From the IMG/VR virus record IMGVR_UViG_3300030430_005214, positions 1 to 64,000 of that record: a stretch of DNA of 64,000 bases; one strand, given 5' to 3'. Below the pieces are notes generated by a model. The model had not been told where the DNA came from. It ran no database searches and saw nothing but the letters and a program-made list of their open reading frames with translations. The position numbers and the translations under genes were made by a program. Of the stretch, positions 8,846-42,943 are shown in pieces (the first letter of the stretch is position 1; each line of letters begins with the position of its first letter). Source of the stretch: a virus.

Positions 8846-11647
8846 TTACTTGTTCTCTAACTGCTTCTTAAGTGAAGCGATCTGTGCAGACTGCTCTTGG
8901 ATAGCAGAAACAAGGATTGCGGAGAGACGACCGTAATCGACACCGTAGAGTCCTTCTTCCGAACCGTGAACAGCTTGTGGTATGACTTGCTTAAGCTCTT
9001 GCGCCATGAAACCGAAGTCTCTGGAGCCGTCCTTCTTCCAAGTAAAGTTAACAGCCTTAAGGTTGTTAACAGTCTCAAGACCGTTCTGGATAGCAGAAAC
9101 ATCAGTCTTAAGTCTTTCATCGGAGTAAGTTACGAAAGCTGCAGCACGAACTTTATTCTTGTTGTTTGAACCGTCAGCAACATCAACTGCAAACTCAGAG
9201 GTAGCATCACCACCTATGGTTACGTGTGCAGCACCAGAAGCATCGGTAAACTTAAGAGTATGATCGGCCGCGGTGTACTTTAACAACTCGTTGGCTGCAG
9301 CACCGTGGAAAGAAACATCTTTACCGGAACCATCAGCACCGAAAACACTTGTGTCATTAAAGTGAAGACCAGCAGAACCACCGTCAAATCTAACTACGTT
9401 AGCAGCAGATATGAACGAGATGCTACCATCATCGTCATCACCAAAAACAAGAGCTTGATCATCAGCGACAAGACCACCTTGGCTTAAAACAAGTTCTTTA
9501 CCAGCAGTAATCTCTTCTTGGCCATCTGTAGTGACAAATTTCAAGTAAGAGGTTGCGCCCTCTAAAACATCAAGCGCAGCTGCGCGGTTGTCTGTAAGTG
9601 AAATAACCACATCGTTGGCGTCGGCTGCAATAGTATCAAGTAAAATACGACCAACATTAGTGATGTTACCATCATTAACATCCAATGAAGTGAAGCTACC
9701 TGCGCCAGCTTCAATACCATATGTTAAACCGCCGCCGCCAGTAAGACTTAGAGATCCACTCATTCGAATACCATTGGCAGTCGAACCGGAAATCTCAAAC
9801 ACATCAGATGCACTGATGTATCCTAAAGAGCCAGATGCGCCAGCATCAGCCTCGTCGGTGCAAAACTTAAACTTCTGATCGTCGTCCATATTTGCGCCTG
9901 CTTGGAACTCAAACTCTTTCTTAGCGAAGATACCTTCGCCGCCATTGGTAGTTTCAAACTGTAAGTATACGTTTGAACCTTCTTTGATCTCTAGAGCAGC
10001 GGAGCGGTTATCTGTCATGACAAGATCAATATCGTTGCCATCAGCAGAAATGCTGTCCAGAGCAATGTCGCCAACGTTAGTAATGTTGCCATCGCCAACG
10101 CTTAGTGAAGTTACGCTAGTAGCTTGGAAGCTAGCTTGACCAGCTTCAATGCCATACGTTCCGCCACCGCCACCGGTGAGACTTAAAGAGCCACTTACGC
10201 GAACACCATTAGCAGCAGAACCAGAAATTAGTAATACATCAGAAGCTGAGACGTATGATAAAGAACCTGAAGCGCCACTTCCGGCTTCATCAGTAGCAAA
10301 TTGTAGTTCTTTGTCATCAAAAACAAGACCACCTTCCTGAAGTTCTACCTCTTTCTTGACTGTGATGCCTTCTTCGCCATTAGCTGTGCTAAATACCATA
10401 TATTGGTTAGAGCCTTCCTTGATTTCAAGAGCGGTTGCGCTATTGTCCGTGAGACTAAGATCGATATCTGTGCCATCAGCAGAAATGCTGTCAAGCGCGA
10501 TGTCACCAACATTTGTGATGTTACCATCGGTAACGCTTAATGAAGTAACAGTTGAAGCACCGGCGCTGAATGTACCAACACCAGTAATGTTTTGACTGTT
10601 TGCATCAAGTGCCTCACCAAGTTGATCGATAAAAGCTTGACCATCAATGTAAAGATTCTTGTACTGCGCCGCGGCTGCACCTAAATCAACATCATTGTTG
10701 GTTTCCGGACGTAGTACGCCGTCTTGCAAACGAACCTGAGTTGTACCACCGATGTTAAGGTCAAGGGCAGTATTTGCGTGGTCATAAAGAACAGAAGCAA
10801 CAGTATCACTTCCACCAGAACCACCAATCTGTAAACCACCACCAGTGGCTGCAGCCGAAGCTGAACCAGATGCGGCCAAGATTAATTTATCAACAACCTC
10901 TAGAGTTGTCTCAGTGCGTGTTACGCTATTAATTTCATTAACATCAAGAACGTCAATTTGAGCGTAAGTAGCGGTTAAGTGAGTAATGGTGCCAATTGCT
11001 TTATTTGCATCAAGAACTAATGCCTTGTTTGCAGCGGCCGTACCATTGGTAATGCCATCAAGCTTCTCAAGGTCAGTCTCATCCATATCGGCAGAACCGA
11101 TGATAAAAGAGCCTTCTGCTGTGACGTTACGGAAGCCAGAAGCGTCTTTGCTAGCGTCGACGACAACAGCTTTATTAGCAGCAACAGTACCATTGGTGAT
11201 ACCGTCAAGCTTTTCAAGATCAGTCTCATCCATATCAGCGGAACCAATGATGAACGAGCCGCCTGCTGTGACATTGCCAGTTGAAGTAATGTGACGGAAG
11301 CCAGAGGCGTCCTTATTGCTATCAACAACAACAGCTTTATTAGCTGCGACAGTGCCATCAGTAATGCCATCTAGTTTTTCAAGATCAGTCTCATTGAGAT
11401 CAGCATTTCCAATAACAAATGAAGAACCAGCTGTGACTGAACCATTAAACACACCATTTCCTAAGAATGTTGCGTCAGAAGATCCAGAAACGGTACCAGC
11501 TGCTTTGGTACCAACGTTAAAGTGAATTAACTCGGCTGTATCAGAGCCGGAAAGATAAATTGAACCAGAATTTTCTGGTTGTGTGCCTGTAAAATTTTGT
11601 AGGTCAATAAACTTACCATACTCAGTTACAGTTGCGGGACTAGACAT
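8846..11647 (-). CDS. Repeat-built tail fibre/spike with C-terminal intramolecular chaperone (peptidase S74)
   Basis: YSDERLKTDV...FGFMAQEL...VDYGRLSAILVSAIQEQ S74 domain; G/A/S/T/D-rich body with internal repeats; AAGGAGG SD. Confidence 0.85.
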   Translation of the reverse strand: MSSPATVTEYGKFIDLQNFTGTQPENSGSIYLSGSDTAELIHFNVGTKAAGTVSGSSDATFLGNGVFNGSVTAGSSFVIGNADLNETDLEKLDGITDGTVAANKAVVVDSNKDASGFRHITSTGNVTAGGSFIIGSADMDETDLEKLDGITNGTVAANKAVVVDASKDASGFRNVTAEGSFIIGSADMDETDLEKLDGITNGTAAANKALVLDANKAIGTITHLTATYAQIDVLDVNEINSVTRTETTLEVVDKLILAASGSASAAATGGGLQIGGSGGSDTVASVLYDHANTALDLNIGGTTQVRLQDGVLRPETNNDVDLGAAAAQYKNLYIDGQAFIDQLGEALDANSQNITGVGTFSAGASTVTSLSVTDGNITNVGDIALDSISADGTDIDLSLTDNSATALEIKEGSNQYMVFSTANGEEGITVKKEVELQEGGLVFDDKELQFATDEAGSGASGSLSYVSASDVLLISGSAANGVRVSGSLSLTGGGGGTYGIEAGQASFQATSVTSLSVGDGNITNVGDIALDSISADGNDIDLVMTDNRSAALEIKEGSNVYLQFETTNGGEGIFAKKEFEFQAGANMDDDQKFKFCTDEADAGASGSLGYISASDVFEISGSTANGIRMSGSLSLTGGGGLTYGIEAGAGSFTSLDVNDGNITNVGRILLDTIAADANDVVISLTDNRAAALDVLEGATSYLKFVTTDGQEEITAGKELVLSQGGLVADDQALVFGDDDDGSISFISAANVVRFDGGSAGLHFNDTSVFGADGSGKDVSFHGAAANELLKYTAADHTLKFTDASGAAHVTIGGDATSEFAVDVADGSNNKNKVRAAAFVTYSDERLKTDVSAIQNGLETVNNLKAVNFTWKKDGSRDFGFMAQELKQVIPQAVHGSEEGLYGVDYGRLSAILVSAIQEQSAQIASLKKQLENK
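9340..10546 (-). repeat. Three ~140-145-aa tandem repeats in the fibre (TSLxVxDGNITNVG...LTDNxAxAL..EG...)
   Basis: Units start near 10546, 10111 and 9691 (435 and 420 nt periods). Confidence 0.85.
11000..11437 (-). repeat. Three 49-55-aa tandem repeats (VTAxxSFxIGxADxxETDLEKLDGITxGTxAANKAxVxD)
   Basis: Units start at 11437, 11272 and 11125; near-identical protein with synonymous DNA divergence. Confidence 0.9.
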
Positions 11648-11677
11648 ATTTTAAAATCCTCCTTGTAAGTCTAAATG

Positions 11678-11702
11678 CCGGGTGGTACAAAATCGCACCC
11701 GG
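11678..11702 (-). promoter_or_regulatory. GC-rich 5'-UTR hairpin before the fibre gene
   Basis: CCGGGTG...CACCCGG inverted repeat between the CTATTTA motif (11709-11715) and the AAGGAGG SD; no long U tract. Confidence 0.55.
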
Positions 11703-11708
11703 GTTAGA

Positions 11709-11715
11709 TAAATAG
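11709..11715 (-). promoter_or_regulatory. Putative late promoter motif CTATTTA
   Basis: Intergenic copy of the recurrent motif. Confidence 0.6.
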
Positions 11716-11719
11716 ACTT

Positions 11720-12691
11720 CTAAGTCGGTTCAGTCCCTTGTTTTAAACACTTTATTTCGTCTATTAAATTATCTATTTGATTTTGTTGAAATTTAATTCC
11801 TTCAAGGAGGATAGGTATAATACGAGTATAGTCCATACTCATGGCTTGAGGAGAATTTTCGGAGTTATTTCTGTCCCATTCTACAATAATAGGTAGTTCT
11901 CTACCCACCTCTTCGGCAATAAACCCATAATCTTTTTGATCATTTTTTTTCCACGTAAATGTAACGCCGCGAAGGTTTTGTATGGTTTTTATAGGATTAT
12001 CAATAACTTCGACGTCTTTCTTAAAGCGTTGCGAAGAATAGGTCATATAGGCGTTTGCTTTGATTTTTCCACTATTATCTGCTACATCTGGTAGTGTTAT
12101 GCCGTGAGTTACGCCACCAATTGGTATGCCAATGCCGAGTTTTTGATCTACATGCACTGCAGACCCGGATATAACTACACCGCTTGTTGAGCCAGATATT
12201 TCTAAATAGTTTTTTGAGGCCGCGGCAAATGTAATGTGTGAGTCATTATCATCTCCAAAAAAAAGTTTAACATCATCTCCGAACTTCATGCTGGGTGATG
12301 TGCCATCTGATCCGGGCACCATTTCTAGCGCTCCACCGATCTTAAGAGGAGAGCCACCTTCTAATTGACCATCTATTTGTACTATCGTACCTGATAAGGA
12401 TATGCCAGCTGCAGATCCTGATATTACTAAAAAATTTTCTCCGGCCTCATCATATTCTATAAACGAATCATCATCAGTACCGAATATCAATCTTGTATCA
12501 TCAGCTATTTTTAAATTTGTATCATCAAAAGTAAATGGAGTGATTGCGCCGAAACTACCGCCATTATTAAATTGTATTTGATTATCTGATCCGGCTGGAT
12601 TGGCAGCAACGCTACTATCAGATGTTACGTCCTCGATAATAGCATCTAGCTTTCTTCTAGAATACCTGCCAATTGTGGCGCGGCGTCCCAT
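11720..12691 (-). CDS. Short tail fibre with C-terminal S74 chaperone
   Basis: GSDNQIQFNNGGSFGA fibre motif; YSSQRFKKDV...YGFIAEEV...MDYTRIIPILLEGIK. Confidence 0.8.
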   Translation of the reverse strand: MGRRATIGRYSRRKLDAIIEDVTSDSSVAANPAGSDNQIQFNNGGSFGAITPFTFDDTNLKIADDTRLIFGTDDDSFIEYDEAGENFLVISGSAAGISLSGTIVQIDGQLEGGSPLKIGGALEMVPGSDGTSPSMKFGDDVKLFFGDDNDSHITFAAASKNYLEISGSTSGVVISGSAVHVDQKLGIGIPIGGVTHGITLPDVADNSGKIKANAYMTYSSQRFKKDVEVIDNPIKTIQNLRGVTFTWKKNDQKDYGFIAEEVGRELPIIVEWDRNNSENSPQAMSMDYTRIIPILLEGIKFQQNQIDNLIDEIKCLKQGTEPT

Positions 12692-13546: not shown

Positions 13547-13764
13547 TATTTTCCATGCTTCCATGTTGCTGCTATGTCCGCGATACCTTGGATACCAATA
13601 TAAGCAAGTGAAACAGCCACCCAGTCTTCACTGGTTAGGGCACCACCTACTAACATAAAATAAGTAGCAGTCATCCAGACCATAAGCTTTCTTGAAAGCA
13701 ATCTTCCTATTGTTTTATCTAAAAAAGGTTTAACTTGTTTAGCTTGTTCTTTAACTTCTGTCAT
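13546..13764 (-). CDS. Holin-like small membrane protein
   Basis: 72 aa; LLSRKL motif, two hydrophobic helices, basic C-terminus; GGAG SD. Confidence 0.55.
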   Translation of the reverse strand: MTEVKEQAKQVKPFLDKTIGRLLSRKLMVWMTATYFMLVGGALTSEDWVAVSLAYIGIQGIADIAATWKHGK

Positions 13765-13778
13765 TTTTATTCTCCATG

Positions 13779-15101
13779 CTATCCATTCCCTTCGTTTCCA
13801 GCATCTACTTTATAGGCCGTGTCTCGTTGTCGAATGTTTGCTGGACCAGGTATGGTTATAAAATATGGCGCTTGTCTATTTGCACGAGTGACGCCAAATC
13901 TTCTTGTTGATAATTTGTTTTCTGTCCTCCGTATGGTAAAATCACTAGCTAGTGTTCTAGAAAAAGACTCGGTTCCATCGGTGCTTGTAAACGGGTCTGA
14001 TGATATAAATTGATAAGCACCAATGTCATAAGGCGCAGATCTAGAAGTGCCATCAAAATCAACCGTTACGGCAGCTATTGTTTTACCGGTGCCAATACAG
14101 GGCGAGCCTGATTGCAACTTAAGGCCCCCGGCACGGCCAGTGGGACTAGATGCATCGACAAAAAGAGGATCAGATCCTGAACCGGTTATGTGCCCACCGC
14201 CATCAGTGGCTCCGGCGCCGGTGTTATCTTGTATCGCGCCCTTTCCTGAAGCACTTCCAAAGCTTCCATTAACGCAGTTATTTGAATACGAGACTCTCCC
14301 ATCTATTCCCACTAAATTCGTATCAACATTTTGTGGACCGCCTGAAACACTGGCGGTGGTAATATTTTTAATAATTATATTCTCAACAACTCCCATCCTG
14401 ACGACTTCTACACCAGTAACTCTATCCACTAAAAGTGTGCAGTTTCTAATAATAGTATCCGCAGTAGCATTGTCGCCCATAGAAATATATTCTTGCGTAG
14501 TGTGAGAGGCGGTGTTGTGAAAAATACAATTTTGAATTACCATATTTTCTGAACCGACTATGCTATCGATAATCTTATCATTACACCCATCTCTTATTTC
14601 ACATCGATCTAACAGGTTGGGTGTGCCGGAAGTCGCAGGCGCAGGATCTACAAAGATTGGCGATCCATTCATGTTTTGAAATATGCAGTCAGTATATTGC
14701 ACAGTTGGGGCGCCACCACCAGCGGTGGTGGTTTTGACAATGGTATTATCGGTAGTTCTAAAGTCATCAAAAGTGATACCTTGAAAAGTTATAGTTTCCC
14801 CTGGAGACATACCGACACCACTAAAACCAGTTTTCGTCACTGCACTTGAAGCTCTTGCACCAGTGCCAGCAAATATTGGAGTTTGACCATCTGCGGCAAC
14901 AAAACTAAGACTTTCAGATAAAATCATTCTGCCGCCATGGGCATCAAGACCCGGCTGATAAGTATTAGAATCTAATATTTTAATCGTGTCGTTTTCACTG
15001 GCTCTACGAAAAGCAGCAAAAATTGTTGCCACCGGAGCGCCTTCCGATGTGCCTGAATTGCTATTATCTCCTGAACCAGATGAAACAAATATTGTAGCCA
15101 T
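13779..15101 (-). CDS. Right-handed beta-helix (pectin-lyase fold) protein with choice-of-anchor-Q-like end; possible spike/depolymerase
   Basis: IFVSxGSGDNSNSGT start; repeated I-x-N/D-C-I/T-F rungs; DPLFVD...LQSGSPCIGTG...DFDGTSR...YDIGAYQF. Confidence 0.7.
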   Translation of the reverse strand: MATIFVSSGSGDNSNSGTSEGAPVATIFAAFRRASENDTIKILDSNTYQPGLDAHGGRMILSESLSFVAADGQTPIFAGTGARASSAVTKTGFSGVGMSPGETITFQGITFDDFRTTDNTIVKTTTAGGGAPTVQYTDCIFQNMNGSPIFVDPAPATSGTPNLLDRCEIRDGCNDKIIDSIVGSENMVIQNCIFHNTASHTTQEYISMGDNATADTIIRNCTLLVDRVTGVEVVRMGVVENIIIKNITTASVSGGPQNVDTNLVGIDGRVSYSNNCVNGSFGSASGKGAIQDNTGAGATDGGGHITGSGSDPLFVDASSPTGRAGGLKLQSGSPCIGTGKTIAAVTVDFDGTSRSAPYDIGAYQFISSDPFTSTDGTESFSRTLASDFTIRRTENKLSTRRFGVTRANRQAPYFITIPGPANIRQRDTAYKVDAGNEGNG

Positions 15102-15109
15102 TTAGAACC

Positions 15110-18100
15110 TCAAATCATAATGTGCGCGAACCCCTCTTTTTTATCTATTGTGATTTGCTGGTCCACACAATCTTTAAGATGGTCAAGATGTGATATCAAA
15201 ATGACCGTTTTAAAGTATGTCTTAATTAGTTCTAAAATTGAAATAAAACCATCCATATTCTCGGCATCTAACGCAGTCCCTGGTTCATCAAGAATAAAGA
15301 TGTTGGACTTTGGAAGAGATGAGACGGATAGAAGGGCAAGCCGGATTGCCATGGCAGCTAGTGTCTTTTCCGCGCCTGAGCCCATTTCTATTGGTCGTCT
15401 ATCATACTTTGGATGCTTAATAAAAATATTAAGTCTTTTTTCTTCTGCCTCAAAGAATATCTCAAAGTCGACAACATTAGCTAAGATACGAGACATTTCA
15501 TCATTGATAATAGGCAATTTCTTTTTAATGATGTCATAAGCTATGCCATTGGGGTGCATACACTTCATTAGCAGGTCAAAAGCTGTAATCTCATTTTGCA
15601 GATTGTGCAGCCATTCTTTCTTTTCTTGTAATGTTTGCACTTGTTGTGCTAATGAGCCATTTTCTCTATGTAAGCCTAATAACTCAGTGCGGCATTTATC
15701 TATACTTTTCTGTTTCTTGGCTATGTCTTTGGTTACATTTGTTAACTGCAGGATAAAAGTTTCCTTATTCTCAATAAGACTTTTATTTTTATTATAATCA
15801 TCAATCAGTATATTGATACGCTGTAATTCGTTTTGTGCTGAAAGTGCAGAGTTTTCCCATTTGCCTTTTTCAAGATCTGTTTTCAAAACAACTCGTTCAG
15901 CTTCTCTTCTTTTCTCCATTAGTTTTTTATAGTTTTCCAAATGAGAATTTATTTTTTCTTCATTTGATCTATTTAAAAGTCTTTCTGCTTTTTCTTTTTC
16001 ATTGTTTATTGATTGAACTTGGCCCACAAGATCAACGAGTGTTTCTTTCGAGCAATGCGCATCTTTAATAAACTTGCAAGATTTAAACTTGTCTCCGCAT
16101 GGAACCTCACCAAGAAGTTTAACTTTTTTCTCATTTAGTTCTTTAAGTTTTTCAGCATTTTCTAGTTCTGTTACAAGATTGCTTATTTTAAGAAGTTTTT
16201 CATCTATTTCGTCTTTTTGATTTTTAACAGAGACAACATCAAATGAAGCTTCAAACTTCGCTATTTTATCTAAAAGTTCGTTTTTTTCAGCAAGTATTAT
16301 ATTGCAATTATCGACATTGGAATTGTATGTAGATATATCTTGTTCTTGTTTATTTCTATCTTTTAAAACTTCGCATATATCAACCACTTCTGCTGGAATA
16401 GAATCTATCTTTGTTTCCAAATCTTTTTTGTCGAGCTGCAAAGACATTAGCTCTTCATTTAAGCTTTCACACATTTCGTTTTGTTCAGTAATTTTATTTT
16501 CAGAAAACATCATTTGTTTTTCTATTTCATATATCTCACTGTCATAATCTATATCTTCTGCTTTGCGGAGTGCGCCTCGAAGATCTGCAGCTTCATCCTT
16601 AATGAGTTTGTACTTTCTTTCAAAAAACTGAAGATCAAGAAACTTTGCTAGCGCCTCTTTTCTTTTTGTAGAACCCTCATTGATGAAACGAAGAGAATCT
16701 ATCTGTGATGACATGGAGGTCATTAAAAAGTCATCAACATTTCCAAAATGATTTCTAATGATAGCATCAGTTTCATTTCTAGTTGTGCCGTTTAGAATAG
16801 TCTCTTCATCGGTAACAAGATCTCTTACTTTAAACAAAATATCTGTTTTTGCTTCTAGTGTTTCTTCGCCTTTTAGCTTTTTAACATACTTTTCGCTTTT
16901 ACGATCTATTGTATATCGCTTGTGTCCAACATCAATAGTGACTATTCCATCAGCTTCCTCTTTGTTTTGGTTGATAATATTGAGATTTTTGCGTTCGTTT
17001 TTGCTTGTAGAATTAAAAACAGTATACAACATACTGTCAATAACGGAAGACTTACCAGAAAAGTTTTTACCAAAAATACCAACAATACCATTTAACTTAT
17101 CAAAATCTATGGAGTTGCCTTCACCATAATTAAATAAGTTATTCCAATGCATTGTACGTAAGTTCCAGTTAATGTTTCGCTGAACATCTTCTTTCTCTGC
17201 TAAGGTAGCATTACATTTGCGATTTAACTTAAAGACTGCTTCTAGCTGTTCATCTGTAGGTTCAAAGTCTTTAAGATATTCTTTGATAAGCTTTTCTTGT
17301 ACGGTAACGTCGCGTAGGTTTTCTTCTACATCATCAGTTGCCAAGTCCTCTACGTTACCTCGCTGGCCAGCCGAGCGATTAAGATATCCAATACTCTCTG
17401 GTTTAAATTTGTGTTTAGCTGCATCCATAGCACGTTTCATTGTACTGACGGGTAAACTGTTTTCTGATACTAACCGTATTCGAGCACCAAGGGGGCACTC
17501 AACATTCTTGGGTAGGCGCCCAGTTCTTGTCAAATTGATAGTGACAAAAGGTTTTGGATTTGGAATTACGACGTGCTTAACCGTAAAGTTTTCTTTGTCT
17601 TGAATATCCCATATAAGAAAACCTTTATCATTCGTCTCTCCGAAGTTCTGCTGAACAGTAGAACCTGGATACCGGATCTTTCCTGCGTCGTCTAGTGCTT
17701 GATTTGTTTTATGGATGTCGCCTAAAAAGGCGTAGTCGAATTCGTCAAAGATCGATATCTCGTTTTCTCCGTGCTGCATTGTCCAGCCGACATCCGTGCG
17801 GCAATTTGAAATAGACCCGTGATACAAACCAATGTTAATAACATTATAGTCGGTAGGATCTCTCCAATTATCTCTATCAAATACGCTAAGAACGTTGAGA
17901 CATATTTCTTCATTTATTTTTACCTCTCCGCTATTCTTCAATAAGAAGAGGTTTGGAAGATCCAAAGCTTCAACTATTGGAGTAATAGCATCTTCTCGGC
18001 TACTATTTTTCAAGTTGCCGTCATGGTTTCCAAGTATTATATAGGTCGGTGCAACAGAATTTAACCCACTTAGGAATTCTGAGCACAGTTTTACAAACTC

Positions 18101-18268
18101 TGGAGAGATGTTTGTCTTGGAGTGTGCAATGTCTCCGCAGTGAACAATGTAATCCACCTTCTCTTCACGTAAATGCTCGAAAAGCTTAGAGAAAACCTCA
18201 CGATATTCTGTGTGGTATTTTAGATTTTTTATGTGCGTGTCTGCGATATGGGCGATTTTATAGCTCAT
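15110..18268 (-). CDS. Fused Mre11/SbcD nuclease-Rad50/SbcC ATPase (T4 gp47-gp46-like)
   Basis: DTH, GD, GNHD and LGDIH phosphoesterase motifs; GKNFSGKSS Walker A; coiled coil with Cys hook; GSGAE signature, FILDEP Walker B, ISH H-loop; single ORF. Confidence 0.92.
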   Translation of the reverse strand: MSYKIAHIADTHIKNLKYHTEYREVFSKLFEHLREEKVDYIVHCGDIAHSKTNISPEFVKLCSEFLSGLNSVAPTYIILGNHDGNLKNSSREDAITPIVEALDLPNLFLLKNSGEVKINEEICLNVLSVFDRDNWRDPTDYNVINIGLYHGSISNCRTDVGWTMQHGENEISIFDEFDYAFLGDIHKTNQALDDAGKIRYPGSTVQQNFGETNDKGFLIWDIQDKENFTVKHVVIPNPKPFVTINLTRTGRLPKNVECPLGARIRLVSENSLPVSTMKRAMDAAKHKFKPESIGYLNRSAGQRGNVEDLATDDVEENLRDVTVQEKLIKEYLKDFEPTDEQLEAVFKLNRKCNATLAEKEDVQRNINWNLRTMHWNNLFNYGEGNSIDFDKLNGIVGIFGKNFSGKSSVIDSMLYTVFNSTSKNERKNLNIINQNKEEADGIVTIDVGHKRYTIDRKSEKYVKKLKGEETLEAKTDILFKVRDLVTDEETILNGTTRNETDAIIRNHFGNVDDFLMTSMSSQIDSLRFINEGSTKRKEALAKFLDLQFFERKYKLIKDEAADLRGALRKAEDIDYDSEIYEIEKQMMFSENKITEQNEMCESLNEELMSLQLDKKDLETKIDSIPAEVVDICEVLKDRNKQEQDISTYNSNVDNCNIILAEKNELLDKIAKFEASFDVVSVKNQKDEIDEKLLKISNLVTELENAEKLKELNEKKVKLLGEVPCGDKFKSCKFIKDAHCSKETLVDLVGQVQSINNEKEKAERLLNRSNEEKINSHLENYKKLMEKRREAERVVLKTDLEKGKWENSALSAQNELQRINILIDDYNKNKSLIENKETFILQLTNVTKDIAKKQKSIDKCRTELLGLHRENGSLAQQVQTLQEKKEWLHNLQNEITAFDLLMKCMHPNGIAYDIIKKKLPIINDEMSRILANVVDFEIFFEAEEKRLNIFIKHPKYDRRPIEMGSGAEKTLAAMAIRLALLSVSSLPKSNIFILDEPGTALDAENMDGFISILELIKTYFKTVILISHLDHLKDCVDQQITIDKKEGFAHIMI

Positions 18269-20151: not shown

Positions 20152-20164
20152 ATGGTGGTTTCCT

Positions 20165-32014: not shown

Positions 32015-32022
32015 TAAATTTG

Positions 32023-35000: not shown

Positions 35001-38000
35001 CTAGTTTCCAAATACTAGAGGTTAATATTCCTTGTTCTCTTGAATTGGGCAAAAGATTTTCTGTTCTATGTTCTCTAGTATCTCTCCAAAACTTATTTAC
35101 AAAATTAAGTCTTTTCCTAGTGCCAGAAAGATAAGTATACAAGCCTTTTGGATAAATTGTTTCAGCATATGATACTTCCGCTATATCTTTAATATTATTT
35201 TCATTCAAATAGTTTAAAAATGCCGCGTACGGAGAGTAACTTTTGTTAAACAACAATTCCGGTCTAATTGGTATGATGTTGTCTAGATGCCTACCTGAGT
35301 ATTGTCGTGAAAGTTTAGACTCTTTTGTGTGATCTGTAAAATGTTTTTCAATATTACCCAAGCTGCTTAAAGCGACAGTAATACTTCTTTCCTCTCCTGT
35401 TTTAAATTTATAAATAAGAGGCTTATATTTCGATGTTACAGGTGGCTCAGTAAAGTTTTTAACTAATGAAGGTGGACGCTCAGGATCTTTTACACCAATA
35501 ACTCGCTCTAAATATCCAATTTGATTATGATTTTTTTGATGTCTTACAATTGGATGATTATCTTTTCTGTAAAGCTTCCAGTTTGCCCCGCCATATGGAC
35601 CCTGACGGTTTAGGAGTATAGAGTTTAAATATGGTGTTAGCGCGGGATTAAACACTGTATTTATTAAAGAACCAACAATGTCATTGTTATAACCGCCATA
35701 AAATATGCCAAATGGGTCCGGGGTTAATCCTAAGCTTAACAGTAGCTGTTGGCCGACGATGTTATTATCCGGATCGAATTCGTCTCGCACGATTGTGTTC
35801 AACCCTACAAAATCAATTTCATAGAAAGTGGTTGTTGCTGCTTCTTTGGTAGTAGGAAATCGTATGTTAGTTTGATTTGGAACTATTTGACCACCGACAT
35901 CACTAGAACTTACAAATACTAAATCAGAAGAAGCAAAATCACCCCTGCTAGTGTCTTTTTTCTCATAATCAAATAAAGCAGAACCAGTATAATTTTGTAT
36001 TAAGCTGGCTGTAATCCAAGCATACTGTACATCTGTTTGTGGAATAGCATGTTGTACGTGAAAGTTATCATATTTAACTGTTTGCTCAAAAGGATCATCT
36101 CGGCGCCGGCCAAGCGACTCGCCAAATGTAATCGCTGGTCGACCATTTCTATTAACCTTATGAAACGAGCCAGTACCGCTATAATCTTCAAAATTCACAG
36201 TTGAAAATCCACCAGGGTATGGTGCGAAGCCGGCTTCATCATAAGCAGCGACTGTAAATTGATCACTAAAGAAACCAAATTGATTAGAATGATCAGAATA
36301 TAATTCATTTAGAACAGTTCGAACAGGTAAATTTCTAAATGGCATCGCATTATACACACTAAATTCTGCAGCTGCGATGTCTAACATACCCTCTGTCATA
36401 GTGCTAACATCACCTGGTGCAGAGAAGCGATTTACAATAATTGCTTTATTAGATCCAGTCAAGTCTCTTCTTACCAAAGGAAAATCAATAACACCAGAGA
36501 CAAAAGCCGAGTCGCGAGAACTTATCTCAGTTGGCAAATTTCCCTCAGACTCTACTAGATAACGATTGTTTAATGAGCGGCCATTAGTCATAACAATTTC
36601 ATAAGTCTCTGAATAATTACCTATTTTTGTAACGCCGTTTGCGTCAGTCGCTTGGTCTTCTGTTTCAACAGGAGCTGTTAATTGTTTAATATTTTTAATG
36701 TTTACCGGGCGTTTTGCATACTCTTCACGGAAATACACAGACTTTGGATTTTCCGGTGCGATATTAAGCAAATCTATCCCTTCTGCAGATCCAGTTATGC
36801 GCCAGCCCTCTAGTCTCTCACCTTCGCTATCAGGAGGATCATTATCAGGGGTAAAATTTGTCATTACGTGACGATATGCTCGACCACCGACATATTTTTC
36901 TGTAAACGGACCTTGCATCGGAACATCGCCAAAAGGACCATAACTATCATGGTGTAAGTTTGTGATGGCTAAGTTGATTTGAAAGTCTGCAATCGGGGCC
37001 ATAGCAGCTTCGTTTTTGATAGAAGAGCTATACAGTCCAAATGGAAACACCAAATCACCTTTAAAAACATTACTAAAATCATCACCCCCATCAATAACCG
37101 AAGCAACTGAAAATTTGTATTTTCTTTTGCCCCTATTTAATTCTAAATTATCGTCGCAATCTTTAAAAGATTCAAGCTTTGAATCAGGAGGTTCAATAGA
37201 AATTAATCCTCCCTCTCCTGGTGTGGATTGTGTTGGTCGCTTTCTTATAGAATCCCAAAAACCAACTTTTTTATTCTGATAGGCGTTTCCACCACCATGA
37301 ATGTCTGGCTGGTTTATACCCTTTACCTTATATGGTCTAGCTAGTCTTCTAGTGACATATGTTGACCCTTGATACGTCTCAGATGTTTTAACGTTGTAAA
37401 GCGTTGGAGCTGTCGCATTTGTTTCGTTAACAATGGAATCTAATTGAGTTTGTCGATTTATGTCAACATTGGAATCACCAGAAGATATTATTGGGTTTGC
37501 TCGCTCTGATCTCTCTTTAAACCAAGTGCAATTATCAGCTTCGTCATTTGTTATTGGTGCATGACCCTCTTTCCATGGGTAACTTAGTTCATTAACTCCA
37601 AGTATTATCCCATCTGGTTCACTTTTTACGTCTTTTACAAGGGAATACTTATTTGTAAATTTACTTCTATCACCTAAAACAAAATTTTCAATAACTGTTG
37701 ATATACCATCTTCAAAAGTTAACATAGACATTGGTATTAATTTAACCAAATATCTAGACACGGCATAATCAATAAACTTAAAGTATTCTACGTACTTATC
37801 AAAATCGTAATCATTTGCAACCTTTTCAAAGAAAAGATCTGCTGCTTTTTTAAGTTCTTTATATTCTCCACGATAAGCATTTACCGGAGTTCCAATCATA
37901 TTGTTAAACCAAACAACAGAACCAAACATGTTTAACATTTCCTCTGAAATATCTTGGAAAAGGTTCTTTTCTATTGAAAGATGATAGGTTGTTGGTCTGG

Positions 38001-41000
38001 TATTTCTATTAAAAAACTCGTCATCTTCGGAAAGAATTCTTGTTAAATTAGAATCCATTAAAACTTCAGGTACTTGAGGTTGAAATGTTGATCGTTCTAG
38101 AGACTCAACGGCCTCTTTTGATGACGCAAGGAAGAAACTTCCAGAAGCAGTGTGTCTTCTGGACACTAAGCCACTAAACCATCCATATCTATTATCACTA
38201 AGTGAGCCAGAAGAAACATCCTCGACCGCGAACTCTCCGTTTGAATCTGAACCGGTTACACTTGTAAAGTCCCAAAGCAAAGCTAATGTATGAGCTTGAG
38301 GTACGTACTTATCATTAATGCTATTTTGATATAAAAATGCATTTTGTGTTGGCCTTTCTGCGCCGAAATTACCTAGTTTTATGTTGTGATTGTCTATAGT
38401 GCCAGTTGGTAAACTAGCATACCACGCACGACAAGACTCTATTTTAGTATCGGCAAAGTCAACTATACTTCCAGTAAAGTTATTTCTATGCGCTCCAACA
38501 AACACGCGCTTAGGGCTAGATAATATTTTTCGACCAGAATCATTACTGATCGTACCAGTGACTAAAAATTCTTGGGCCTTATAGTCAGCTATATGATTTA
38601 CACCATAAAAACGAACAGTGTAGCCGGACTCTTCGGATCCGCTCACTTGATTTATTGACTCTATTTTTGTTGGCGCGACAGTAACAGAAACCGTCCACAG
38701 CTGATCGTCATATACGTCGTCAAAGATAGAAGACGTCATCTCTGGTATAAGTCCACCGGTAGTGCTGCTTAATTTAAAGTATGCATTAGATGAAAACTTA
38801 TCGTCTTTAACTATTGAAACTTGAAAGTTGGCATAATCATTTGTATCCCATGTTAAATCGTTTTCAACATATGGATCGGCGGTGTGTACACCAAATAAAC
38901 TAGTTTGCTTATGAAGCGGATATAAGTTGGCTGCCGTGCCTTGATAGCTCTCTTTAACCGTAGCATAATCAGCTATAGACACTCGATTAGGTAAAATCGC
39001 GTTTGCTTCTAAGGTAAAAGCTAACCCTACACCCTCAAAAGTTCCATCTGTAACGCCTGTTCCTGAAAGAAAAGACGTTGAATCATTATCAATTTTATAT
39101 TGGAAGATTGACGCATCATTGTTGCCTATTTTGTTAAAATTAGCATAGTTTTTCTTTTTCGTAATTAATCTGAGATTGTCCTCTAGTTTATATACCGTCT
39201 CATTGCCATACAGATTAATTTTTAATACATTGTCACCAATTCCAAAACACCTTAAAAGGTTTCTAAATGACTTTTCACTACCTTTTGTTTTATAGATATA
39301 ATTTAAGTTATTGTATATATTTTGATAAATAATGTTTTTTACTTCTTGTAAGTTTTTTTCAAACTTAATTTCTTCATCTCTATTATCAAACTTTTCCAGT
39401 AACGTTGCGTCAACAAATATCTCCGGTGCGACAAAACCAACAGACTCAAGAGACTTCTTGTTAAAAGGAGGCGGCGTGGCCTCACCACTATAATATTTTA
39501 TATTATTTAACTCTGGTAGTTTTTCTAAAAGTATTGAAGTTTCGTCAAAATAACTTGAAACAACTTGTAATAGATTTAACAGTTGGTTTCCGTCTAAATT
39601 ATCTCTTTCTGTTTCACTTTGTTCTAAAATCCAACCGGGCATATATGATTTTAAAGAATTTGCATTAGTGTCGTCATATATGCTGCCGCTTTTTGACATT
39701 CTAGACAAATAACTTAAAACATCCGGGTGGAAATCATAAACGATTGGATCTTTAAATTCTATTGTACTAGCAGAAGATTCTAATATAGCAGAGCCAATTT
39801 CTCTAGATCCTGCAGGATTATAACCCGTCCAAGAACCATTGCTTACTCGACCGGAGTAATCTAAAACAGTGGAATCAACGGATGTATTTTCTGTGATACC
39901 CTCATTAAATTTAAAGTAAACACCAAGGTCTGTATTCGATATGTCAGTATTTGTACCTCCACCAACCTGATCAAACCAGCGAGTTTGTATCTGTTTTGAT
40001 GTTCTCCATCGTTTCCAATATCTAAATTCATCAATTGAGCCTGAAAATGGCGACCAACCGCGGTCGCCGCGAGCGGCTGTACCATCATAAAATTCTGCTG
40101 CTTGCGCGCCAATTGTAGAAACGATTGCGCCGGAGACATAGCCAACTGGGAAAACTCCGGTTGAAGAATCGTTATATTCTCCGTCGACAAACAAATCAAA
40201 AAGTGTCTGATTTCCCTCAGTTTTCATTCTAATCGCGTAATGGTGCCAATTTCCATCTGCGATAGAAGAAGTCGTCAGCGTAGGGGAACCCATATATAAT
40301 CTTATATTATTTGTGCTTCCCGAGGCATAACTTACAAAAAAGGCTTGATTGTTGACATTAGCGGCCGTGCCAGTGGTGGCAAGAGCTATCGACAGACGAC
40401 CGTAATTATCACTAGTATGTGTTGTGCCGGTTACATGAGCGTCAACAATAAATTCAAAATATTCTTGGTCAGGAACATAAGCATCTTTCTTAAGCCAAAA
40501 TTCTACGGTATTACCTTTATTTCCATCAATTAAAAGATTATTTTCTCTATTATCATCCAAATCATATATGTTGGCATCTTTACGATAAACAACATTATCT
40601 GTAACTTGGTTATAATATAGGCTATTTCCCGATCCGGCGTGTGGGCCACCTTTTGCTAATATATACTCAAAACCCTCGGTCAGATAATTTACAGGAGGAA
40701 AAAACCCACCTTCGGCACCTGCAGTAGCGGCTCCCGTCAAAAAATTGGCATATCCAGTTGTTCTTGGATATCCATTTTCAAAAAGGTACAAATCTATAAG
40801 AGAAGAGGATACTTCCCAAAGAACTTTTTCTTTTAGTGATCCATCGTAAGGGTAGGTGTCGTGAATTCGTTTAATTGAATCTTCATAGTATTTTTCTGCT
40901 AATCCAAAACGAGCAAAGAAAGCAGGACTATCAAAATTTTCAATCGCTTCAAATCTTGCATTTCTTTTATTGATTGCAGCTGCATAATCAAAAGATTCAA

Positions 41001-41082
41001 TCTCACCTTTGAAATCATTCTTTGATAAAGGTTCTTCTGATTTTAAGTTCTTTTGCTCTTTAAATAAATCTTTTAAGGACAT
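32023..41082 (-). CDS. Giant baseplate wedge protein with LamG/concanavalin-A-like domain(s)
   Basis: 3019 aa; TVEFWLK...WHHYAI...FSGSIDEFRYWK LamG motifs; NLNYIYKTKGSEKSFRNLLRCFG wedge (gp7/gpI-like) motif; two genes downstream of gp6. Confidence 0.7.
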   Translation of the reverse strand: MSLKDLFKEQKNLKSEEPLSKNDFKGEIESFDYAAAINKRNARFEAIENFDSPAFFARFGLAEKYYEDSIKRIHDTYPYDGSLKEKVLWEVSSSLIDLYLFENGYPRTTGYANFLTGAATAGAEGGFFPPVNYLTEGFEYILAKGGPHAGSGNSLYYNQVTDNVVYRKDANIYDLDDNRENNLLIDGNKGNTVEFWLKKDAYVPDQEYFEFIVDAHVTGTTHTSDNYGRLSIALATTGTAANVNNQAFFVSYASGSTNNIRLYMGSPTLTTSSIADGNWHHYAIRMKTEGNQTLFDLFVDGEYNDSSTGVFPVGYVSGAIVSTIGAQAAEFYDGTAARGDRGWSPFSGSIDEFRYWKRWRTSKQIQTRWFDQVGGGTNTDISNTDLGVYFKFNEGITENTSVDSTVLDYSGRVSNGSWTGYNPAGSREIGSAILESSASTIEFKDPIVYDFHPDVLSYLSRMSKSGSIYDDTNANSLKSYMPGWILEQSETERDNLDGNQLLNLLQVVSSYFDETSILLEKLPELNNIKYYSGEATPPPFNKKSLESVGFVAPEIFVDATLLEKFDNRDEEIKFEKNLQEVKNIIYQNIYNNLNYIYKTKGSEKSFRNLLRCFGIGDNVLKINLYGNETVYKLEDNLRLITKKKNYANFNKIGNNDASIFQYKIDNDSTSFLSGTGVTDGTFEGVGLAFTLEANAILPNRVSIADYATVKESYQGTAANLYPLHKQTSLFGVHTADPYVENDLTWDTNDYANFQVSIVKDDKFSSNAYFKLSSTTGGLIPEMTSSIFDDVYDDQLWTVSVTVAPTKIESINQVSGSEESGYTVRFYGVNHIADYKAQEFLVTGTISNDSGRKILSSPKRVFVGAHRNNFTGSIVDFADTKIESCRAWYASLPTGTIDNHNIKLGNFGAERPTQNAFLYQNSINDKYVPQAHTLALLWDFTSVTGSDSNGEFAVEDVSSGSLSDNRYGWFSGLVSRRHTASGSFFLASSKEAVESLERSTFQPQVPEVLMDSNLTRILSEDDEFFNRNTRPTTYHLSIEKNLFQDISEEMLNMFGSVVWFNNMIGTPVNAYRGEYKELKKAADLFFEKVANDYDFDKYVEYFKFIDYAVSRYLVKLIPMSMLTFEDGISTVIENFVLGDRSKFTNKYSLVKDVKSEPDGIILGVNELSYPWKEGHAPITNDEADNCTWFKERSERANPIISSGDSNVDINRQTQLDSIVNETNATAPTLYNVKTSETYQGSTYVTRRLARPYKVKGINQPDIHGGGNAYQNKKVGFWDSIRKRPTQSTPGEGGLISIEPPDSKLESFKDCDDNLELNRGKRKYKFSVASVIDGGDDFSNVFKGDLVFPFGLYSSSIKNEAAMAPIADFQINLAITNLHHDSYGPFGDVPMQGPFTEKYVGGRAYRHVMTNFTPDNDPPDSEGERLEGWRITGSAEGIDLLNIAPENPKSVYFREEYAKRPVNIKNIKQLTAPVETEDQATDANGVTKIGNYSETYEIVMTNGRSLNNRYLVESEGNLPTEISSRDSAFVSGVIDFPLVRRDLTGSNKAIIVNRFSAPGDVSTMTEGMLDIAAAEFSVYNAMPFRNLPVRTVLNELYSDHSNQFGFFSDQFTVAAYDEAGFAPYPGGFSTVNFEDYSGTGSFHKVNRNGRPAITFGESLGRRRDDPFEQTVKYDNFHVQHAIPQTDVQYAWITASLIQNYTGSALFDYEKKDTSRGDFASSDLVFVSSSDVGGQIVPNQTNIRFPTTKEAATTTFYEIDFVGLNTIVRDEFDPDNNIVGQQLLLSLGLTPDPFGIFYGGYNNDIVGSLINTVFNPALTPYLNSILLNRQGPYGGANWKLYRKDNHPIVRHQKNHNQIGYLERVIGVKDPERPPSLVKNFTEPPVTSKYKPLIYKFKTGEERSITVALSSLGNIEKHFTDHTKESKLSRQYSGRHLDNIIPIRPELLFNKSYSPYAAFLNYLNENNIKDIAEVSYAETIYPKGLYTYLSGTRKRLNFVNKFWRDTREHRTENLLPNSREQGILTSSIWKLDSHDDFAENAEFVPYKGGMTQQDGVGELQNCYSLFHYQTGSDVVATINYNRRIKLIYQDKDEFPSSAPAELRAREADLYYFPTFATLQSASAIARYSASVGDTFWEATSSNDHKPFYDNYDQYAEEGFRNLKDGTVLPEFIISDYMSRFIANANNLQYDSYSPAGFFDVSMNMSKDLQIQFGLLSLTGTDNFATTEEFLNRYVFSDFYDYFKLVEEDFEDQRGVADVPTDTKLRTTKHKLTCEAILKFLPYDGFYPSERTTQLGKIFFQSLTADLFGTEKNVRTAAQPFFAPGILFNSIKSGIAVDYPVFTNEGGFTATPSLCWGHAISGNFDTRIPFGDLVQPKNIRIYDAEVDPDLALDSTASIVNVKDDHTFAMSNFLAETMNLFIGRGANQQAMIRSNQDNEVDAEIIIPEDGTYTMYLNLMNSMNIKNVADYLEQDAIMRVSPYDYVVGNADITSSLQVNTASVTMYDRAITGFNIDPFLYGSSFGPPVETGEFGKQDRTSAFKMGPINSDFGITGSAFDPFTPAYYNGFGTVQIFANLKEGVTTREEIFATASYSYNRLPTFSYPTVGNYATALLNAYKTTNHRYKMQLSASLFLGDENPNHVLYETKQEFQTEDGATAKKQLVAFKPRWECPVLDFTNASPQTSFISGNVAKGMWHQYGEIPERDNGIKLQAEGPNGKFITNNNVAADYPGLKDLARLLNIDTTQFSKVGKLNSSGDLSISNIAAPTTQREFSEAIIAIPFKYNEIINQTEFYHIDKEQFNLVKSNLYKSIDDRFDPLTTLNIRTFNEIKEKSPSVLDESKELYDLMSLMRKYVIPPHLDFLHNDKVSPFVMFMIEYSINLTQKDLQNMWQNVEPTFARKALKVKSETSLHLMPTTKAQGRQPATDVKIPYHPYFAPKKGLNEFFDSTKTRWAVFKVKKRAAMNYNSMVGKINLNGTEYIRKDLGPQQANDFLYSYNWPYDFFSLIELAKLNSITTFNPTYNEEE

Positions 41083-41083
41083 A

Positions 41084-42943
41084 TTATTCTACTCTAAACC
41101 TAAACCTTTCTGGTTGCTGAACATAGCTTCCATTGATTAAATAAGCAAAACTTAGCTCATAAACCGTGTCCGTATCAAACAAGTCCATTTCTAAATCAAA
41201 GTAGCTGCCACTCGCATCATAAGACAATCGAGTATGGTTTATAGAACCAGTCCCAAAAGGAACAACTTCTAGATTATCGTTTACTCTAGTGAACCGATAG
41301 TAAGTATTATCAATTATACTTGTTTCTATTTTATTATTCGCTACTGTATAAATAGTTGGGGACCAATCTTTTTGACGAGTATAAAGTCTAAATCTAACCT
41401 TTTCATTTTTAGAATAAGTAGAACGTAGATTGATGACTTTAGAAACATATTTTTGATCAAAATTGTAATTTTGACTGCCAAACGTTTTTACTTTTATCGC
41501 TGAACCAGTGTGGTATTCAATTCCTCCGCTATGCCAAACATCAAATATGGTTGTTATGCTAGCAGAATCGTATGCAAACGAGCAAGAATATATACCAGTT
41601 TCTACGTGAGAAGCTGTTATGTTAATCATAGTGGCGTCATTGGCAACACCCCCGCCGACTGGTAAGGATAGCGGACTTCCAATAGGGGTAGTTGAACCAC
41701 TGTATATATTTACATTCAACACTTGAACACCAGAATTTTCACCCAAATCAGGAATATCTTTTAATTGTCCTTTGACAACATTATAAAGATATAGGTTCAT
41801 TAAGTTATCTGGACCGGTAACAAGCGATGAGCTTAAAAAGAAATCTCCTCGATTATCTTTTTTGCTATCATCCCAACGGGCTTCAATAATCGGGCGCTTA
41901 TGAAAAAATTGTGAACCTCTTGCAAAAAACTTTTTAGTGTAAAATGAATTATTTGCCGTTTCATTTGAACCTGTAAGGCGTACACCAAAGCCAAAATTTG
42001 ACAGGCCAGCGCTGGCTGGTCCTTTTATCCAATCTTCAACTAGATGACTTACATCTAGTTCTAAATTTTCAAAACCTGTGTCAAATGCTTGAGTGAAGGT
42101 GTACTCCTCACTGTCAACATAGCTACCACCTTCAACGTTAGAACCGCTAGTGAAGTTGTTGACAACAAAAGCACCCATACCTGAGTCTTGTGCGTTCGTT
42201 TTATTACCTGCAGTGCCAGGAGTATTTTGGGTAATAAGAACATTGTTGCCTGTTTTCGATGCAGTGAAACCAATATTTGTGCCGGCATTAATCCGTGCAA
42301 TGATTTGATCTGCGGTGGCTCCTGCATCACCGCCAGCCATGCCGTCGATACCAATATTGACAGTAGTACCAGGAGTATATGCTGTAGTGTTTGCCGATAC
42401 GTTTACACCTGTTACAAACCCATATGTTGTTGAGGTACCGGCTGCGTCAGTCAATGTAAATGTACCTGCAGTCAGCAGCTCTTTCACCACGGTTTCAATT
42501 GTCGCGGTGGCTTTGCCGGTGATGTCTGCCCAAGGCGTGTCACTTGAAGCAGAGAGATAATTTGATGCATCTTCATCTAAATATTCTTCCATATCTAAAC
42601 CAAGACCTTCATTCCAAGATTGAGATATTGGCTGGACTACAAGTGTATAATTTTTTGGAGTTGTTTGTGTATGTTCTGCATTATACATCTTTAAAAAGAA
42701 ATTAACGCTACCGGAGGCCGGTATTTTTTTCGCGGTGCGATCTGAATTAATTTCAGTAACGTCAAATTCAATAAGAATACGTGACAGTTCAGAAGATGAA
42801 GTTGTAGCCTGAGCATATATGCTAAACACCTCCAATGTGTCTGACTGGCCCATGTTTCCAGCAGTGCCGCGGGTTCGTAAATTCGCCTTAAAAGCATTTG
42901 TAATTGTATTGTCTTTTGTAGCATAATATCTTTTTATTGCCAT
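41084..42943 (-). CDS. Virion/baseplate protein (DNRLRE/CBM96-like N-terminus, Ig-like C-terminus)
   Basis: KDNTI...SRILIEFD...FFLKMYNA...PISQSWNEG.G...LDVSHLVEDW pattern; directly after gp6. Confidence 0.6.
   Translation of the reverse strand: MAIKRYYATKDNTITNAFKANLRTRGTAGNMGQSDTLEVFSIYAQATTSSSELSRILIEFDVTEINSDRTAKKIPASGSVNFFLKMYNAEHTQTTPKNYTLVVQPISQSWNEGLGLDMEEYLDEDASNYLSASSDTPWADITGKATATIETVVKELLTAGTFTLTDAAGTSTTYGFVTGVNVSANTTAYTPGTTVNIGIDGMAGGDAGATADQIIARINAGTNIGFTASKTGNNVLITQNTPGTAGNKTNAQDSGMGAFVVNNFTSGSNVEGGSYVDSEEYTFTQAFDTGFENLELDVSHLVEDWIKGPASAGLSNFGFGVRLTGSNETANNSFYTKKFFARGSQFFHKRPIIEARWDDSKKDNRGDFFLSSSLVTGPDNLMNLYLYNVVKGQLKDIPDLGENSGVQVLNVNIYSGSTTPIGSPLSLPVGGGVANDATMINITASHVETGIYSCSFAYDSASITTIFDVWHSGGIEYHTGSAIKVKTFGSQNYNFDQKYVSKVINLRSTYSKNEKVRFRLYTRQKDWSPTIYTVANNKIETSIIDNTYYRFTRVNDNLEVVPFGTGSINHTRLSYDASGSYFDLEMDLFDTDTVYELSFAYLINGSYVQQPERFRFRVE

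Follow-up and report, generated by a model that had tools for sequence, protein, structure and literature searches.

Bacteroidota possess a general O-glycosylation system that acts in the periplasm on exported proteins at the sequon D-[ST]-[AILVMT], and chloroviruses, which are viruses of eukaryotes, encode cytoplasmic glycosyltransferases (GTs) that place N-linked glycans on the major capsid protein at atypical sequons. Phage tails assemble in the cytoplasm. Serine-rich repeat adhesins are glycosylated by a GtfA/GtfB priming complex followed by downstream GTs, for example, GalT1 (PMC6973325, PMC5207161). Among phages, the GTs of mycobacteriophages glycosylate virion proteins (Freeman et al. 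2023, Cell Host Microbe, as cited in PMC12619734), with the glycans located, according to the citing account, on C-terminal extensions of the capsid and tail-tube subunits by mass spectrometry (PMC12619734). Here we analyze a 64,000-nucleotide stretch of the IMG/VR virus record IMGVR_UViG_3300030430_005214 (hereafter, the window), in which a short tag, hydrophobic-[ST]-Gly-[ST]-hydrophobic, with Ala or Ser sometimes substituting for Gly, recurs in several dissimilar tail, baseplate and fibre proteins, and which ends within a large cluster of sugar-metabolism genes. The tag is an ordered, protein-level unit whose enrichment is limited to some of the virion proteins of a single phage clade. Tentatively, we interpret it as the recognition site of a phage-encoded cytoplasmic system of protein O-glycosylation.

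A recurrent tripeptide in virion proteins of the window

An earlier note on this DNA had counted by hand about 11, about 11 and about 14 occurrences of the tripeptide [ST][GAS][ST] in proteins of 393, 371 and 619 amino acids (aa), respectively, and "dozens" in a 3019-aa protein; computation gives 11, 11, 16 and 42. The ISGS and VSGS strings noticed in the fibres belong to 17 sites in a 933-aa and 4 in a 323-aa fibre protein, and the reported near absence of the motif from other proteins also holds, with 2 sites in TerL, none in the portal, Mre11-Rad50 and gp6-like proteins, and 5 in a 2603-aa protein (8.2 expected).

The significance of these counts, given below as observed vs expected, was assessed with composition-preserving shuffles, 1000 of them for the z values of the single proteins; for the pooled proteins, shuffling was performed either globally or locally, within 30-aa windows. 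For the four main proteins pooled, the count of 80 compares with 27.5 under the global and 30.2 under the local shuffle; the excess thus survives the compositional control proposed in the earlier note, with z values of 4.7, 3.8, 4.1 and 7.4 for the 393-, 371-, 619- and 3019-aa proteins, respectively. The glycine form, [ST]G[ST], accounts for half the sites and the bulk of the signal (40 vs 8.6-9.3, z about 10.5), and the forms with Ala or Ser in the middle show an approximately twofold excess. The permuted controls G[ST][ST] and [ST][ST]G occur at expectation, [ST][^GAS][ST] is depleted, and the other 35 proteins of the window contain 34 sites vs 42.5. The most over-represented non-rare tripeptides are TGS and SGS, both of which also exceed the dipeptide (Markov) expectation. 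The codons at the motif sites are diverse, which indicates selection on the protein and rules out a DNA-level motif.

The tag extends beyond the tripeptide. The residue at position -1 is hydrophobic in 54% of the sites (background 32%) and that at +3 in 49%, and the 5-mer [ILVFYWMA][ST]G[ST][AILVMTFY] is found 28 times in the seven carriers, where about 2.6 are expected, and not once in the other 35 proteins (14.4 thousand aa). The Ser/Thr before and the Ser/Thr after Gly are coupled, with an odds ratio of 5.7 in the window (p 2e-9), 6.4 in Microcystis phage Mel-JY01 and 3.7 in Flavobacterium phage immuto. We also considered replacement of labile Asn-Gly/Asp-Gly turns and rejected it: NG is only mildly low in the four proteins (16 vs 22.5) and similarly low in the others, and such replacement would not account for the Ser/Thr that follows Gly.

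The phage contig from which the window is taken is linear and 104 kb long (about 42% complete according to CheckV); the window covers its first 64 kb, and the genes of the window lie on the minus strand throughout (Table 1). PHROGs and Pfam comparisons recognize a T4-type portal, TerL, a primase, a RuvC-like resolvase, a gp6-like wedge protein, a fused Mre11-Rad50 and two fibres with Peptidase_S74 chaperone domains. The 393-, 371- and 619-aa proteins contain no Pfam domain, and the 3019-aa protein contains one Laminin_G_3 (PF13385, E 4e-10), which holds 6 of its 42 sites, and otherwise has no family match. By portal comparison, the nearest cultured relatives are Mel-JY01 and immuto (about 42%), followed by an uncultured 484-kb phage and Rhodothermus phage RM378. 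In the 933-aa fibre, ISGS and VSGS are spaced by 7-10 aa within two repeated blocks. Among the carriers in the window, BLAST detects just two paralogies, 393/371 and the two fibres, and hhalign detects no homology between the 393 and 619 families (probability 0.15%), so that the recurrence of the tag is not due to a common domain, and shared domain homology among the carriers was ruled out.

Table 1. Location of the tag carriers, the comparator and other genes discussed in the text (window coordinates; sites, [ST][GAS][ST])
Feature	Position	Strand	Remarks
933-aa tail fibre, C-terminal Peptidase_S74 chaperone domain	8846..11647	-	17 sites
323-aa fibre paralogue (Peptidase_S74)	11720..12691	-	4 ISGS-type sites
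440-aa Ser/Thr/Gly-rich protein	13779..15101	-	10 sites, z 1.9
1052-aa fused Mre11-Rad50, single open reading frame	15110..18268	-	Mre11 (SbcD-like), aa 2-347; Rad50 (SbcC-like), aa 186-1047
393-aa virion protein	20165..21346	-	11 sites, motif-rich
371-aa paralogue of the 393-aa protein	21350..22465	-	11 sites; C-terminal 26% identity
3019-aa giant wedge-like protein	32023..41082	-	42 sites; Laminin_G_3, aa 186-366
619-aa baseplate-module protein adjoining the gp6-like gene	41084..42943	-	16 sites
gp6-like inner baseplate wedge protein (comparator)	42943..44745	-	0 sites vs 2.8 expected
2603-aa gene	45173..52984	-	
Start of 18-kb sugar cluster	58482..64000	-	Continues past the window to 71.5-77.4 kb of the contig
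UDP-sugar dehydrogenase, 279 aa	58482..59321	-	
DegT aminotransferase, 267 aa	60176..60979	-	
240-aa open reading frame	61492..62214	-	
292-aa open reading frame	62403..63281	-	

Two other features of the window deserve mention. The Mre11-Rad50 fusion is kept, at 53% identity, in a complete 185-kb relative (G003). The 2603-aa gene has a counterpart in the same relative (G003 positions 57156-64544, 2462 aa), in which the first 948 residues contain three repeats of the endolysin/peptidoglycan-binding type (PHROG endolysin families, E 1e-42); these repeats suggest that the giant protein is a virion-borne wall-degrading protein.

Conservation of the tag and its clade specificity

The enrichment extends well beyond the window. 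Homologues of the 393-aa protein number more than 3,400 and come mainly from marine metagenomes; all 117 full-length homologues examined contain 7-16 sites (z at least 2.6). Eight of its 11 sites are kept as a class, with SGS, TGS, SGT and TSS interchanging, in 65-99% of these homologues, and Gly swaps with Ser or Ala at the same alignment columns. In the 393 and 619 families, the Ser/Thr of the motif stay Ser/Thr in 82-85% of the homologue residues, compared to 64-71% for other Ser/Thr. Across 80 related IMG/VR loci, [ST]G[ST] in the 393 family is at 5.0 times the expectation, with adjacent enzymes at or below expectation (no more than 1x), and across 79 related loci, the 371 family reaches 4.5 times the expectation (439 vs 97).

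In G003, the orthologues of all four main proteins and the fibres are enriched, as are a gp13-like neck adaptor and a 968-aa tail sheath protein. The 18 sheath sites are all confined to aa 142-618 and spare the conserved C-terminal core; the domains of T4 gp18 other than the core point outward. Enrichment is weak (z 1.7) in what is probably the major capsid protein of G003. Altogether, the motif is concentrated in proteins or domains that are expected to face outward. The number of sites is maintained between the window and G003, with shared positions for only 5 of 11, 3 of 11, 8 of 16 and 17 of 42 sites in the 393-, 371-, 619- and 3019-aa proteins, at sequence identities of 36% for the 3019-aa pair and 45-53% for the other three. 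The syntenic tail modules of Mel-JY01 and immuto are enriched as well; for example, a 718-aa protein of Mel-JY01 contains 9 sites vs 1.0 (z 8.3) and a 1053-aa tail spike of immuto contains 28 vs 9.9.

The comparison phages behave differently. There is no motif excess in the baseplate, sheath and fibre proteins of T4 (including gp7, gp10 and gp12), in gp6, gp7 and gp8 of cyanophage S-SM2 (22 vs 16.7 in the 4156-aa gp7), or in the giant wedge proteins of XacN1 and PA5oct, which rules out a general property of tail, giant wedge or beta-sandwich proteins. The underlying hydrophobic-x-Gly-x-hydrophobic frame occurs at chance frequency, about 16 per 1000 aa alike in T4, S-SM2 and the window proteins. 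The frames with Ser/Thr at both x positions, in contrast, make up 27% here, 21% in Mel-JY01 and 31% in immuto, compared to 2% in T4, 6% in S-SM2 and 0% in the other 35 proteins of the window. Thus, this clade does not have more glycine turns; it is the hydroxyl residues around them that differ, in certain virion proteins only, and this clade-specific element points to a clade-specific reader.

Sugar genes and glycosyltransferases

The earlier note placed a nucleotide-sugar pathway together with two glycosyltransferase-like genes between 58482 and the end of the window. The enzymes of the pathway are there, namely, a UDP-sugar dehydrogenase, an SDR epimerase, a DegT aminotransferase, a hexapeptide acetyltransferase and a Gfo/Idh/MocA oxidoreductase, which, by their sequences, represent a WbpA/B/E/D-like set, but Pfam and NCBIfam find no GT in this part, and the 240- and 292-aa open reading frames have no match in either collection. 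The dehydrogenase is without the first ~64 profile positions and the C-terminal domain, and the DegT protein covers only positions 29-235 of 360; possibly, these short genes are copies that have been truncated or split or are decaying. Further along, the cluster encodes a full-length DegT (390 aa).

The part of the contig at 64-77 kb encodes an FkbM methyltransferase, a Kdo-8-phosphate synthase, two CMP-sugar synthetases, a SIS isomerase, a PseC/LegC-like aminotransferase and an AroB-related sugar-phosphate cyclase (TIGR04425, 438 bits). The identification of the latter led us to drop the Kdo8N pathway that had been considered on the strength of a DHQS-like gene and DegT. An open reading frame in this part also has a weak MptE/Maf-like match (21 bits, below the cut-off). 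For a phage, this range of nucleotide-sugar enzymes is unusually broad; the cluster showed no flippase, polymerase or priming transferase.

Four genuine GT genes are found past the window, at 71.5-76.6 kb of the contig, and encode a GT1, a GT2 and a neighbouring pair of 427-aa GT4 proteins, GT4b and GT4a; a PD-(D/E)XK nuclease gene follows GT4a, and the cluster extends to 77.4 kb. G003, immuto and Mel-JY01 all keep the order PD-(D/E)XK, GT4a, GT4b, GT2 in synteny, a module that is accompanied in the clade by variable nucleotide-sugar genes, and GT1 and GT2 genes are present in all four relatives rated complete. The GT4a and GT4b proteins are orthologous across lineages at 31-37% identity, similar to the structural genes, and the pair is kept in immuto, Mel-JY01, G003 and a more distant genome, G019 (see below). 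GT4a orthologues are found in 7 of 50,697 phage records (four of immuto, and Mel-JY01, LR756508 and RM378), with a weak match in Synechococcus siphovirus S-CBS4; the GT4a region of LR756508 contains no structural genes. In S-CBS4, a distant GT4-like gene, a GT2 and an S-adenosylmethionine-dependent methyltransferase gene (9916-12282) are inserted between the portal and head-protease genes, and there is no [ST]G[ST] excess in this phage with its single distant GT4.

Both GT4a and GT4b contain E-x7-E, the signature of retaining GT4 enzymes, conserved for GT4b in four of five lineages. The exception is RM378, whose GT4b (10616-11893, 22% identity) has lost the second Glu; RM378 is also the phage with the weakest tag enrichment, an anecdotal coincidence. 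In the relatives G001, G002, G004, G005, G010 and P0241-P0247, GT4b is fused to a GT2 domain in proteins of 660-705 aa, which supports the action of both in one pathway. The best sequence match of GT4a in the PDB is the glycosyltransferase B736L (3OY2, E 8e-9), which we take to be a chlorovirus enzyme, and that of GT2 is GalT1 (5HEA, E 1e-8), over the N-terminal 60 residues only.

A search at the level of cluster representatives retrieved 413 clusters similar to GT4b at E 1e-30 or better, and one distant representative led to a sister lineage, G019 (IMGVR_UViG_3300024261_002332) and G020 (IMGVR_UViG_3300010149_000051), in which the PD-(D/E)XK-GT4a-GT4b module lies directly beside baseplate genes. 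The two contigs are 12-13% complete, from genomes that are probably larger than 300 kb, and are very AT-rich, with 11.8% Asn and 3.7% Gly in the tail proteins.

As to the co-occurrence of the tag with GT genes that the earlier note proposed to test, every enriched lineage examined (four, with close relatives counted once) has orthologous GT4a and GT4b, and among the relatives examined, none was found that lacks the GTs and is equally enriched; the other side of the relationship, discussed below, is looser. The vertical inheritance of the module across phages of Flavobacterium, Microcystis and Rhodothermus and marine phages makes a phage substrate likelier than a host-specific glycan. The nucleosides of immuto, analyzed by liquid chromatography-mass spectrometry, include canonical dA, dC and dT, with dG replaced by a 7-deazaguanine, formylated preQ1 (fdPreQ1) (bioRxiv 10.1101/2023.04.13.536721), and the thymidylate-synthase/hydroxymethylase family (PF00303) has no match in the four complete relatives; on these grounds, DNA is an unlikely substrate of the GTs. 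A search for TET/JBP yielded no matches in the relatives and none in the control genomes either.

Possible readers of the tag and comparison with known systems

The tag is specific to a clade, to a class of proteins and to hydroxyl residues, its two hydroxyl positions are coupled, and it recurs across unrelated folds; a clade-specific reader, therefore, appears to be the best explanation. As GT4a, GT4b and GT2 are the only conserved, clade-specific candidates found, we favor O-glycosylation by phage-encoded cytoplasmic enzymes, an interpretation to which we assign a nearly even chance. Under this scenario, GT4a and/or GT4b would place the first sugar on a Ser/Thr of the tag, before or during assembly, in the tail, baseplate, fibre and neck proteins and in the outer domains of the sheath. 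GT2, the additional GT1 and the FkbM-type methyltransferase could then extend and trim the glycan, with sugars supplied by the adjacent genes through a WbpA/B/E/D-like diacetamido-uronic acid route and as Kdo-type CMP-sugars. The outcome would be a sugar coat on the outer surface of the tail, perhaps protecting against proteases, contributing to adsorption or countering recognition by grazers. It is, then, quite possible, if somewhat short of probable, that this widespread clade of aquatic myoviruses, distantly related to T4, coats its outward tail, baseplate, fibre and neck surfaces with phage-made glycans attached at the tag through GT4a/GT4b.

The structural context of the sites was examined in AlphaFold2 models of the 393- and 619-aa proteins, which have predicted local distance difference test scores of 71 and 62, respectively, the latter model being of low confidence. 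The Gly-type sites are located in a hairpin turn, at the ends and starts of strands, before a helix and in loops, and the Ala/Ser-type sites are more often within strands. The 619-aa model consists mostly of beta strands and has only low-scoring Foldseek matches by template modelling (TM) score, to tandem domains of the Ig/FN3-like type. The 393-aa model has no significant PDB match, and its nearest look-alikes in BFVD are uncharacterised, ConA/LamG-like and baseplate wedge proteins. The sites in the fibre, one every 7-10 residues, resemble a beta-helical repeat. In the 3019-aa protein, the LamG_3 match ends, on its C-terminal side, with the site fSGSIDEFR, which resembles F-x-G-x-I-D-E-v-R, which we take to be the conserved terminal strand of this domain. 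These contexts, as modelled, are compatible with turns and are heterogeneous.

Several of these and other observations weigh against glycosylation. The hydrophobic flanks and the strand-end and hairpin positions in the models fit a structural turn, in which the hydroxyls may be poorly accessible once the protein is folded, and one site is a canonical LamG strand motif. In G019/G020, the 619-like, wedge-like and other large tail proteins contain [ST]G[ST] 3 times vs 6.1 and show no excess of any other [ST]x[ST], and only the 371/393-like protein is enriched (6 vs 1.3 in G020); in RM378, which has GT4a, the enrichment is patchy and weak. Given G019/G020, the GT pair does not predict a broad excess of the tag. 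Furthermore, phylogeny confounds the co-occurrence of the GTs and the tag, which corresponds to roughly a single evolutionary event, and all GT-free controls are outside the clade. GT4a and GT4b score marginally against models of protein-glycosylating GTs (GtfA, 16.7 bits; SdgA, 19.9 bits). Finally, the avoidance of the tag in non-virion proteins, suggested by a pooled deficit in a few conserved enzymes at related loci, failed proteome-wide (40 vs 28.9 in G003). The original glycosylation-sequon proposal is thus partly supported: a clade-specific, trans-acting reader, such as a GT, is plausible, and the hydrophobic flanks, the turn and strand-end sites and the loose link to GTs keep the verdict from being stronger.

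The explanation that deserves most consideration beside glycosylation, and that we regard as a real possibility, if a lesser one, is a clade-specific structural idiom involving no modification, in which the tag serves tight beta-turns, beta-bulges, strand ends and helix N-caps through ST-turn-type hydrogen bonds and was inherited and spread by ordinary sequence evolution in beta-rich outer tail proteins. Such an idiom would fit the hydrophobic residues at -1 and +3, the modelled positions of the Gly-type sites at hairpin turns, strand ends and one helix N-cap, the LamG_3-terminal fSGSIDEFR, the beta-helix-like spacing in the fibre, the positional conservation of about eight sites per protein and the GT pair without broad enrichment in G019/G020. 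However, turns obey the same physics everywhere, yet in T4, S-SM2, XacN1 and PA5oct, where the frame is equally dense, only 2-6% of the frames carry Ser/Thr on both sides; the inner and non-virion proteins of the clade itself lack the motif; the carriers are non-homologous and the structural contexts heterogeneous; and the exchange of Gly with Ser/Ala at the same columns is unusual for a turn glycine with a positive phi angle.

The specificity for the clade and the protein class would fit equally well a trans-acting reader other than a GT, acting by phosphorylation, O-acetylation or O-methylation, or phosphoglycosyl transfer, or else an assembly chaperone or cement protein, with the GT module serving another substrate, such as one particular fibre protein or a superinfection-blocking glycan of the host envelope. 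Quantitatively, the breadth of the motif follows the presence of GTs only loosely, which leaves room for such a reader, and the cluster also contains acetyl- and methyltransferases, but no candidate kinase or chaperone was identified, and the GTs are the only conserved, clade-specific modifying enzymes found beside the sugar genes; we consider this explanation rather unlikely. An artefact, whether of Ser/Thr/Gly-rich low complexity, repeats or a DNA motif, is very improbable. In its favor, Ser/Thr are somewhat abundant in these proteins, repeats occur within the fibres and the motif was defined post hoc, but z remains about 10 under the 30-aa local shuffle and about 4 relative to the Markov expectation, the permuted motifs are at expectation, the codons are diverse, and the excess is replicated out of sample in G003, Mel-JY01, immuto and the 80 IMG/VR loci; the global and local shuffles, the permuted motifs and the Markov expectation refute the compositional, low-complexity version of this explanation.

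Our literature searches yielded no description of the tag and none of glycosylated tails in phages of this clade. If the proposal is correct, phage tails would gain their first described system of cytoplasmic, sequon-directed O-glycosylation, and virion glycosylation would reach well past the mycobacteriophages to T4-like phages that are abundant in the environment, as judged by the thousands of homologues of the tagged proteins in ocean metagenomes. A simple sequence rule would then predict glycosylated surfaces from genomes, and the large "LPS-like" (lipopolysaccharide-like) sugar clusters of marine phages, usually read as host-modifying, would acquire a function. If the tag is structural, it still represents an unusual, lineage- and protein-class-specific tripeptide preference that requires explanation. 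The question is directly testable because immuto and Mel-JY01 are cultured.

Among the known systems, that of chloroviruses is similar in the use of virus-encoded cytoplasmic GTs and atypical sequons, with the similarity of GT4a being only generic to the GT-B fold. The tag shares with the Bacteroidota sequon the length of three residues and a hydrophobic residue after the acceptor: here, in 58% of the sites, the residue after the third-position Ser/Thr is A/I/L/V/M/T. The Bacteroidota sequon itself, D[ST][AILVMT], was considered and rejected, being not enriched in the four proteins (12 vs 16.4).

The closest parallel to the candidate enzymes is GtfA/GtfB, with two adjacent GT4-type proteins followed by GT2-type extenders and cytoplasmic O-glycosylation, in that system, of Ser/Thr separated by small residues (S-A-S, S-V-S). 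Unlike the non-catalytic GtfB, GT4b keeps E-x7-E in four of five lineages; the TIGR02918 model of GtfA scores 16.7 bits here compared to the cut-off of 574.6; there is no accessory Sec system here; and the putative substrates are folded beta proteins with isolated tags rather than long low-complexity repeats. With the mycobacteriophages, as far as they are described in PMC12619734, the clade shares phage-encoded GTs, which are thought to decorate the virion proteins of those phages in the cytoplasm before release. In contrast to the sites mapped there, the candidate sites here form no C-terminal Ser/Thr-rich extension of the capsid or tail-tube proteins and are dispersed over tail, baseplate, fibre, neck and outer sheath domains, and the GTs are different, namely, a clade-specific GT4 pair and a GT2.

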